Shown here: in pieces, positions 15,065 to 15,748 of the stretch
Position numbering within the stretch: the stretch's first letter is position 1
Layout of the letters: every line of letters begins with the position of its first letter
Assembly (NCBI RefSeq): GCF_022846255.1
Contig: NZ_AP025682.1
DNA from: Escherichia coli
GTDB lineage: Bacteria; Pseudomonadota; Gammaproteobacteria; Enterobacterales; Enterobacteriaceae
Length of the DNA: 64,000 bases
Strand: one strand, 5' to 3'
Program-made: the position numbers and the translations under genes
Notes under the pieces: model-generated
What the model was told of the DNA's origin: nothing
What the model saw: the letters and a program-made list of their open reading frames with translations, nothing else
The model's database searches: none

Positions 15065-15748
15065 TTATTTTTTGTTTTTCCGCTGTGGAGATTCAGCAGT
15101 TTGAAGACGGTCGAACTGAATATTTGCCATGTTGATGGCTAATTTCAGATATTTGAGGTTGTTGGGCGAGACACCTTTTAGCGTCAAATTAATGTCTTGC
15201 CATTGACCTGGTAATAATTTCAGGGAGGAGTTCATTGAGGTACTAAATAGCAATTGCTGCCATTTTGCTAATGCGTTGATGTCGGTGGGTTTTTCTCCCC
15301 CCCATGTCGCGTAGAAACCCATATTTGATACAGGAACACTTAATAAGTTAACCAGTGAAATACGAATAACGCTGCCGTTTTCTACTGCGTCAATAGACAG
15401 TATTTTCCCTGCCAAACCAACAGAACCGTTATTTAAAATGAAGTATTGGGTTTGTGCCGGGTTAAATTCTGTAAAGACAAATTCGTCCTGTTTGTCTTTA
15501 ACTGCCTTCACCACGCCAGCGAGCGTTTTGGTACTGTTTATGATGGTAGTTTGTTGTTTTTCAAAGTGTTCTATCTTGCGCTTGTCGAGTTCTTGTTGTT
15601 TTTCAAGCGCCTCAATTTTGCTTTTTTGTAACTCTTGCTGTGTAACGAGATCGTCGACCTTACTCGCTTTTTCAATATAGTCACACCCTACCAATAAGCA
15701 AAGTTGCAATATCATTAACACGCTTAACAGTGTTTTCTTTAGGTTCAT
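15065..15748 (-). CDS. SadB-like lipoprotein (227 aa), predicted inner-membrane helper for the downstream adhesin
   Basis: Signal peptide with lipobox MNLKKTLLSVLMILQLCLLVGC followed by Asp at +2 (CD, the inner-membrane retention signal); heptad-like coiled coil QQELQKSKIEALEKQQELDKRKIEHFEKQQ; C-terminal beta-rich domain; stop is 43 bp upstream of the adhesin ATG on the same strand. Confidence 0.7.
   Translation of the reverse strand: MNLKKTLLSVLMILQLCLLVGCDYIEKASKVDDLVTQQELQKSKIEALEKQQELDKRKIEHFEKQQTTIINSTKTLAGVVKAVKDKQDEFVFTEFNPAQTQYFILNNGSVGLAGKILSIDAVENGSVIRISLVNLLSVPVSNMGFYATWGGEKPTDINALAKWQQLLFSTSMNSSLKLLPGQWQDINLTLKGVSPNNLKYLKLAINMANIQFDRLQTAESPQRKNKK

Follow-up and report, generated by a model that had tools for sequence, protein, structure and literature searches.

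A SadB-type lipoprotein gene directly upstream of a UpaG/EhaG-type trimeric autotransporter adhesin in Escherichia coli

The gene located immediately upstream of the trimeric autotransporter adhesin in a 64,000-nucleotide stretch of DNA (hereafter, the window) was identified, with very high confidence, as the E. coli orthologue of Salmonella SadB. The favored explanation as a whole, in which the gene is a sadB orthologue and its product, referred to below as the helper, would assist the downstream adhesin as a lipoprotein trimer, is assigned a probability of about 85%.

The pairing of the two genes is already known, both from the work of Grin et al. (2014; PMC3953254), which describes the lipoprotein as a conserved upstream neighbor of the adhesin across Salmonella, Shigella, and Escherichia, and from a RefSeq family name. 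The initial annotation had suggested that such a helper may be under-appreciated in E. coli. This can be upheld in part only, as the 2014 paper and the RefSeq name speak against it, while the E. coli-specific work does ignore the helper: the UpaG biogenesis study leaves it unmentioned, and no experiments on the E. coli helper were found in the searchable literature. The value of the present identification for genome annotation is minor, given that the gene is already named in RefSeq.

Features of the helper gene and its product

The helper gene is an intact open reading frame that begins with an ATG codon and extends exactly over the interval given in Table 1, and the same 684-nt coding sequence was called by PGAP in near-identical genomes. 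An AAAGGAA Shine-Dalgarno sequence is located 8 nt 5' of the ATG. The N terminus of the product reads MNLKK-TLLSVLMILQLCL-LVGC, that is, a basic n-region, a hydrophobic core, and a lipobox. The codons for the two critical residues were read directly from the sequence, with Cys22 encoded by TGT at 15683-15685 and Asp23, at position +2, by GAC at 15680-15682; Tyr24 follows at +3. Helper alleles were compared between the window and five other E. coli alleles (six in all), and the C-D-Y sequence was unchanged in every one of them. The SadB crystal construct, with Ser in place of Cys22, likewise has the D-Y pair.

Table 1. Coordinates of the helper gene, the adhesin gene, and associated features in the window.
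Feature	Position	Strand	Basis
sadB orthologue, coding sequence of a 227-aa prolipoprotein, including stop codon	15065-15748	-	ORF list; 4C47 match; 99% match to c4423
Predicted signal peptide, residues 1-21 (MNLKKTLLSVLMILQLCLLVG), for signal peptidase II	15686-15748	-	Sequence reading and SadB precedent
Lipobox L19-V-G-C22 with Asp23 at +2 (predicted Lol avoidance/inner-membrane retention)	15680-15694	-	Codons read
Predicted coiled-coil stalk with polar, Gln-rich core, residues 24-90	15479-15679	-	Heptad register and modeled helix
Predicted C-terminal beta-sandwich (MATH-like, YajI-like), residues 91-213	15110-15478	-	SadB identity, model, Foldseek
Variable basic C-terminal tail (...QRKNKK), residues 214-227	15068-15109	-	Allele alignment
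Helper-adhesin spacer, 43 bp	15022-15064	-	43 bp in 6/6 E. coli alleles; sequence 79-98% conserved
Trimeric autotransporter adhesin, UpaG/EhaG/SadA positional orthologue, 1543 aa	10390-15021	-	Domain matches
Terminator-like hairpin, 13-bp stem with 6 G-C pairs, T-rich tail	10216-10245	-	Scan
Candidate sigma-70 promoter TTGACA-18-TAAAAT	15939-15968	-	11/12 consensus, best in region; predicted
Exact match to the predicted upstream TosR-binding site of CFT073 c4423	16056-16076	-	Motif search; predicted

The segment that follows the lipobox contains no Pro and a single Gly over residues 24-90, and residues 25-89 were modeled as one helix, giving a coiled coil of 9-10 heptads. The best heptad register places Y24, V31, Q38, I45, Q52, I59, Q66, T73, V80, and Q87 at a positions, and K27, L34, Q41, L48, D55, F62, I69, L76, V83, and F90 at d positions. 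The hydrophobic periodicity of this pattern was matched by 102 of 5000 shuffled sequences, a modest significance that is expected because the core is polar. Residues 91-213 are rich in strands in an AlphaFold model, and the basic tail beyond them, where confidence in the model is low, shows only 29-64% identity between alleles while retaining a constant KK ending. A lipobox with Asp at +2, a coiled-coil segment, and a C-terminal beta-rich domain had all been described in the initial annotation, together with the position of the gene 43 bp upstream of the adhesin on the same strand, and each of these points was borne out; the strand itself, which had been left unstated, is the minus strand.

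Relationship of the helper to SadB

A phmmer search against the sequences of the PDB returned a sole strong match, namely 4C47 (Salmonella SadB, 'inner membrane lipoprotein'), with E = 1.4e-66. Residues 23-227 of the helper align to residues 3-207 of 4C47 without gaps and with 52.7% identity over 205 mature residues. The S. enterica protein (STM3690), which is the helper of SadA, belongs to the same length class as the window protein, and the lipidated Cys of SadB is at position 22, as is the lipobox Cys here, with Asp-Tyr at +2 and +3 being common to both. The heptad registers of the two proteins are identical. The SadB crystal structure contains a trimeric coiled coil of nine heptads with Gln at four a positions and two d positions (Grin et al., PMC3953254), and the window protein keeps five of these six core Gln residues (a38, a52, a66, a87, and d41), the remaining d-position Gln being replaced by D55. 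Identity to SadB is highest in the beta domain, at 59%, compared with 46% in the coiled-coil half and 29% in the tail. The resemblance extends to the locus, as both gene pairs occupy the same mtl-lld site in the same orientation and include an ESPR-containing adhesin, and the spacer is 44 bp in Salmonella versus 43 bp here. The client adhesin differs, being of the UpaG/EhaG type with a passenger different from that of SadA.

The initial annotation had proposed a comparison of the predicted structure with the SadB crystal structure, and this was carried out by Foldseek using the AlphaFold model of the helper, which was built as a monomer from a six-sequence alignment and has a moderate pLDDT of 67. 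Chains of 4C47 took the top three places among PDB entries (E = 1.6e-19), while the lipoprotein YajI (2JWY) ranked sixth (E = 2.8e-3). Global superposition of the model on 4C47 was poor (TM 0.46-0.54, rmsd 8-11 A), which is attributed to the low confidence of the model and possibly to a different orientation between helix and domain in the monomer. Because of this low confidence, the identity of the helper rests on the sequence alignment and not on the model. The match to SadB anticipated from the architecture and position of the gene is thus confirmed over the full mature length of the protein. The conserved heptad core, taken with the SadB crystal structure, further points to a homotrimeric state for the E. 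coli helper.

The window allele is missed by the profile libraries and was identified by the PDB sequence search. A Pfam scan of the helper protein gave no significant family, with PF11622 (DUF3251) absent even at E <= 10, and an NCBIfam scan gave nothing above cut-off. The match to PRK11530, which we take to be the YajI model, was weak (E = 0.07; score 12.5 bits, cut-off 158). Across six SadB-type sequences, PF11622 was detected in two, and marginally so (about E = 0.01). E. coli YajI (DUF3251), a paralogous lipoprotein, shares the beta-sandwich topology and likewise has a coiled coil predicted at its N terminus; it is about 14% identical to SadB and is related to the helper by a distant paralogy that is visible at the level of the fold. 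A PADLOC scan gave no matches, and hence no link to a defense system.

Organization and regulation of the helper-adhesin locus

The 1543-residue protein encoded downstream of the helper contains an ESPR (E = 4.8e-16), many YadA_head repeats, a YadA_stalk, and a YadA_anchor (E = 8.5e-20); at the same position in other genomes PGAP gives the names 'YadA-like family protein', UpaG, or EhaG. Scanning of the 43-bp spacer revealed no terminator-like site on this strand. The candidate promoter lies ~190 nt upstream of the helper ATG and forms a conserved island, as the surrounding upstream region is only ~62% identical between allele groups. At the other end of the gene pair, the terminator-like hairpin begins ~145 nt past the adhesin stop codon, is the only minus-strand site of its kind between 10000 and 16400, and is likely to be the end of the operon. 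The two genes are therefore in an operon-like arrangement, and their layout suggests that they would be carried on one transcript. At 39.6% and 34.1% GC, respectively, the helper gene and the leader are much richer in AT than the adhesin gene (51.9% GC) or the whole window (51.0% GC). In the work of Totsika et al. (2012) on EhaG/UpaG regulation, the locus was reportedly repressed by H-NS.

Further information comes from c4423 (C_RS20890, WP_001049694.1), the gene upstream of upaG in strain CFT073, the product of which is identical to the window protein at 224 of 227 residues. It is found at the same locus and is labeled only 'Uncharacterized protein' or 'DUF3251 domain-containing protein', and the adhesin encoded downstream is of 1778 aa in CFT073 versus 1543 aa here. 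The TosR-binding motif predicted upstream of c4423 (supplementary file 3 of PMC5956150) is also shared, and occurs once in the window compared with zero occurrences expected by chance. In RNA-seq of CFT073 upon TosR overexpression, c4423 was within the top 25 induced genes, with a log2FC of 5.1. The sadB-type gene is thus transcribed and regulated in UPEC, as judged from this 99%-identical gene. Note, however, that upaG was absent from the same top-25 table, so that the two genes may not be co-transcribed to an equal extent.

Distribution of the gene pair

The order of genes in the window is yibH-yibI-mtlADR-yibT-yibL-helper-adhesin-lldP, so that the pair is flanked by the mtl and lld operons, in agreement with Fig. 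1 of Grin et al. (2014; PMC3953254). ECs4474, a gene from an O157 transcriptome paper that was considered as a candidate for the helper gene, was rejected because it is yibI. Both mtlR and yibL are 100% identical at the nucleotide level to those of E. coli strain A13 and, with the helper matching CFT073 at 224 of 227 residues, the window is of E. coli carrying a UpaG-type helper allele.

A megablast search with the gene region yielded matches in 4120 of the 5426 complete E. coli genomes, all of them chromosomal. The RefSeq names attached to the matches were 'DUF3251 domain-containing protein', 'SadB/YajI family lipoprotein', and occasionally 'hypothetical protein', and the next gene was always a 'YadA-like family protein', EhaG, or UpaG. 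Where the locus is missing, both genes are missing together. In K-12, helper and adhesin were lost in one 5-kb deletion (Grin et al., PMC3953254), and in an APEC strain an IS91 element stands in place of both. A 2026 global survey recorded 106 SadB homologues adjoining trimeric autotransporters, all of them in Enterobacterales.

It could be that the protein belongs with the general periplasmic lipoproteins of the YajI/DUF3251 kind, has other envelope proteins or none at all as its targets, and is linked to the adhesin by nothing more than position. YajI is found in almost all enterobacteria without being linked to autotransporters, the helper gene is intact in one genome in which the neighboring ehaG is frameshifted, and the top TosR-induced genes include c4423 but not upaG. 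Such a role is nevertheless very improbable in view of the fixed 43-bp adjacency in all six alleles, the joint loss of the two genes in K-12 and the APEC strain, and the restriction of the surveyed SadB homologues beside trimeric autotransporters to Enterobacterales, and also because the protein shares 53% identity with SadB while its matches to PF11622 and PRK11530 are not significant.

Selection on the helper gene

The six E. coli helper alleles are strongly diverged, with identity to the window allele falling to 66% for the protein and 72% for the nucleotide sequence, compared with 98-100% for mtlR. The most divergent parts are the signal peptide and the coiled coil (~50% identity among the alleles), while the beta domain is 81-85% identical and includes long invariant stretches. 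The dN/dS ratio was 0.10-0.14 over a dS range of 0.5-2.2, in which values of 1.6-2.2 are saturated. Such ratios at saturated dS indicate that the protein sequence itself is under selection. For one pair of alleles, the 68 codons of the coiled coil have a dS of 0.36 and not a single amino-acid change. The helper alleles in E. coli are very old, and the protein has clearly been kept by purifying selection.

The failure of Pfam and NCBIfam to recognize the window allele, together with a nucleotide identity among the E. coli alleles as low as that given above, might be taken as signs that the gene is a remnant, decaying or without function, beside a variable adhesin. This reading is refuted by the selection analysis, and the chance that it is correct is negligible: the open reading frame is intact in 6/6 alleles (226-227 aa), the lipobox, the C-D-Y sequence, and the a and d core positions of the heptads are invariant, and c4423 is transcribed in CFT073. 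The E. coli helper is probably functional.

Proposed role of the helper in adhesin export

From its sequence, the helper prolipoprotein would be exported by the Sec pathway, acquire its lipid at Cys22, and be processed by signal peptidase II, and the Asp at +2 would prevent extraction by the Lol system such that the protein remains in the inner membrane, in its outer leaflet. By reference to the SadB crystal structure, three copies of the helper, concentrated in the membrane, would join through a weak, Gln-cored coil of about nine heptads, and the resulting stalk would hold three MATH-like beta-sandwich domains out into the periplasm. In the proposal of Grin et al., the trimer would briefly grip the three adhesin chains, still unfolded, on their emergence from the Sec translocon and so hold them together and in register; the ESPR may meanwhile tether the adhesin chains near the inner membrane. 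By analogy with SadB, a chaperone-like mechanism of this kind is put forward for the helper with moderate confidence.

Several of these steps have been documented for SadB itself. Mass spectrometry showed cleavage at Cys22 and a tripalmitoyl anchor, and SadB, with its Asp at +2, was recovered in the inner-membrane fraction of a sucrose gradient (Grin et al., PMC3953254). Co-expression of SadB, either in Salmonella or in E. coli with the Salmonella genes, led to more SadA on the surface and to higher protease resistance, and SadA produced without SadB was more protease-sensitive and stickier (PMC3953254). An independent study observed about three-fold more SadA display with SadB. SadB improves the export of SadA and is not required for it.

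The Grin et al. proposal draws an analogy with eukaryotic TRAF2, which also combines a trimeric coiled coil with three MATH beta-sandwiches of identical strand topology, and whose MATH domains engage the three unstructured chains of a membrane protein that is itself a trimer. TRAF2 differs in having no detectable sequence similarity and another orientation of the domains on the coil. A second system for comparison is TpgA of Acinetobacter, the helper of AtaA. TpgA resembles the SadB-type helpers in being small and periplasmic, and its gene is co-transcribed with that of a trimeric autotransporter, the display of which it raises. TpgA is unrelated in sequence, however, and is a monomer of BamE-like and OmpA-like domains located at the outer membrane and peptidoglycan instead of the inner membrane.

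An alternative interpretation is that the gene is a true sadB orthologue but that the benefit to the adhesin is an effect in cis or on expression, for example through mRNA stability, counter-silencing of the AT-rich leader, or translational coupling. The lipoprotein itself would then serve some other function in the envelope or have no bearing on the adhesin. The constructs compared in the published tests, sadBA and sadA alone, differ in cis, and total SadA was also higher in the presence of sadB, so that an effect on expression instead of a chaperone effect could account for the difference. A direct contact between SadB and SadA was never detected, as phage display gave no convergent sequence and cross-linking failed. 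In addition, truncated UpaG assembles within seconds to minutes in the K-12 strain AD202, a background without the helper locus, in the pulse-chase assay of PMC5670179, which indicates that the helper is dispensable for trimerization and insertion of the anchor. The low GC content of the helper gene and leader relative to the window would also be in keeping with counter-silencing. On balance this alternative is considered unlikely. The purifying selection described above (dN/dS about 0.1, with dS saturated) acts on the protein, the SadA made without SadB differs in quality and not in abundance alone, and a trimeric, MATH-like architecture suits a trimeric client. The chaperone-like reading is accordingly the one preferred here.

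Dedicated helpers for the export of trimeric autotransporters have been described in two cases only, SadB and TpgA. UpaG and EhaG are used as virulence markers of E. coli and as display scaffolds, and they are usually cloned without the upstream gene, often in K-12. Adding the helper could lift the yield of display approximately three-fold, as with SadA, and its inclusion might alter conclusions on the folding and aggregation of these adhesins.

Helper alleles and adhesin types

Pairwise BLAST comparisons showed that the helper gene is part of a longer divergent block, which extends from the yibL stop codon (16306) through the leader, the helper gene, and the adhesin passenger to about 12100. 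The ends of the adhesin are conserved: intact alleles do not differ at all over the last 110 residues, and identity in the ESPR region is 91-98%.

No co-variation was observed between the helper allele and the type of adhesin head among the six alleles, which speaks against an allele-specific pairing of helper and head. The mature helpers of the window and of strain A13, for instance, are identical and the adhesin heads are 43% identical, while the helpers of the window and of an EhaG-type strain are 69% identical and the heads 70% identical. One tentative interpretation, for which the odds are rather against than in favor, is that recombination has uncoupled the helper allele from the head type, and that the helper may recognize a conserved end of the adhesin, making the different helpers interchangeable. 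The uncoupling of helper and head, together with the conservation of the adhesin ends, makes the ESPR-containing N terminus or the C-terminal stalk and anchor the likelier point of contact, if there is one. Were this to be the case, helpers could be swapped among adhesins of the UpaG, EhaG, and SadA types, and the search for a contact between SadB and its client would be narrowed to the conserved ends of the adhesin. Beyond the divergent block, past ~12100, identity returns to 87-98% for the C-terminal ~590 residues of the adhesin and for lldP.

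Allelic variation of the helper and the adhesin

Comparison of the window with five other E. coli loci (L001-L005) revealed a hypervariable block, which begins immediately past the yibL stop codon and runs through the gene for the 227-residue SadB-like lipoprotein (the helper) into the passenger of the adjacent trimeric autotransporter adhesin. In these comparisons the amino-acid identity of the helper alleles was found to be as low as 66%, with dS saturated at 1.6-2.2 and dN/dS of 0.10-0.14, and nucleotide identities of 87-100% were recorded for mtlR, yibL, the adhesin C terminus and lldP.

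No coupling of adhesin head type to helper allele was observed across window positions 10390-15748 and loci L001-L005. Heads were only 43% identical in spite of identical helpers, and 70% identical where the helpers shared 69% identity. The extended signal peptide region (ESPR) of the adhesin was conserved at 91-98% in the same set, and the last 110 residues were identical across the intact alleles. The adhesin comprises 1543 amino acids in the window, compared with 1802 in A13, the closest E. coli genome, and 1778 in UpaG of strain CFT073; its passenger contains a tandem repeat.

Features of the helper-adhesin locus (window coordinates)
Feature	Position	Strand	Detail
Adhesin	10390-15021	-	
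Hypervariable block	12100-16306		versus L001-L005
Tandem repeat, adhesin passenger	12696-13518		unit 249 bp (83 aa), 3.3 copies, 97% identity
Helper gene	15065-15748	-	GC 39.6%
Helper leader	15749-16306		558 bp, GC 34.1%
Predicted TosR-binding site copy	16056-16076	-	exact match to site predicted upstream of CFT073 c4423 (PMC5956150)

Composition and regulation of the upstream region

Compared with the adhesin (51.9% GC) and the window as a whole (51.0%), the helper gene and its leader are far richer in AT, and GC content within the leader drops to 31% at its lowest point, around 15800-16199. Such a composition is typical of horizontally acquired DNA silenced by nucleoid proteins.

The CFT073 gene c4423 is 99% identical to the window helper gene. 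Overexpression of TosR induced c4423, entered as 'Uncharacterized protein', with a log2 fold change of 5.1 (PMC5956150). For Salmonella sadB (STM3690, 'putative lipoprotein'), microarray analysis gave 4.2-fold lower expression in an anaerobic fur mutant, a predicted Fur site is given, and Fnr is also cited as a regulator in the accompanying table (PMC3212961).

Annotation and disruption of the locus

The window helper was not detected by Pfam PF11622 (DUF3251), and no NCBIfam model scored above its cut-off; near-identical proteins are nevertheless named 'DUF3251 domain-containing protein' in RefSeq, and 'hypothetical protein' in one RefSeq genome.

E. coli strain 2013C-4974 (L002, 5872-11450) has an intact helper gene upstream of an ehaG annotated as frameshifted. 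In the E. coli APEC strain E18055 (L006, 4274-6536) the helper gene is missing and the adhesin survives only as a C-terminal fragment; the replaced segment is occupied by an IS91-family transposase together with a small hypothetical gene.
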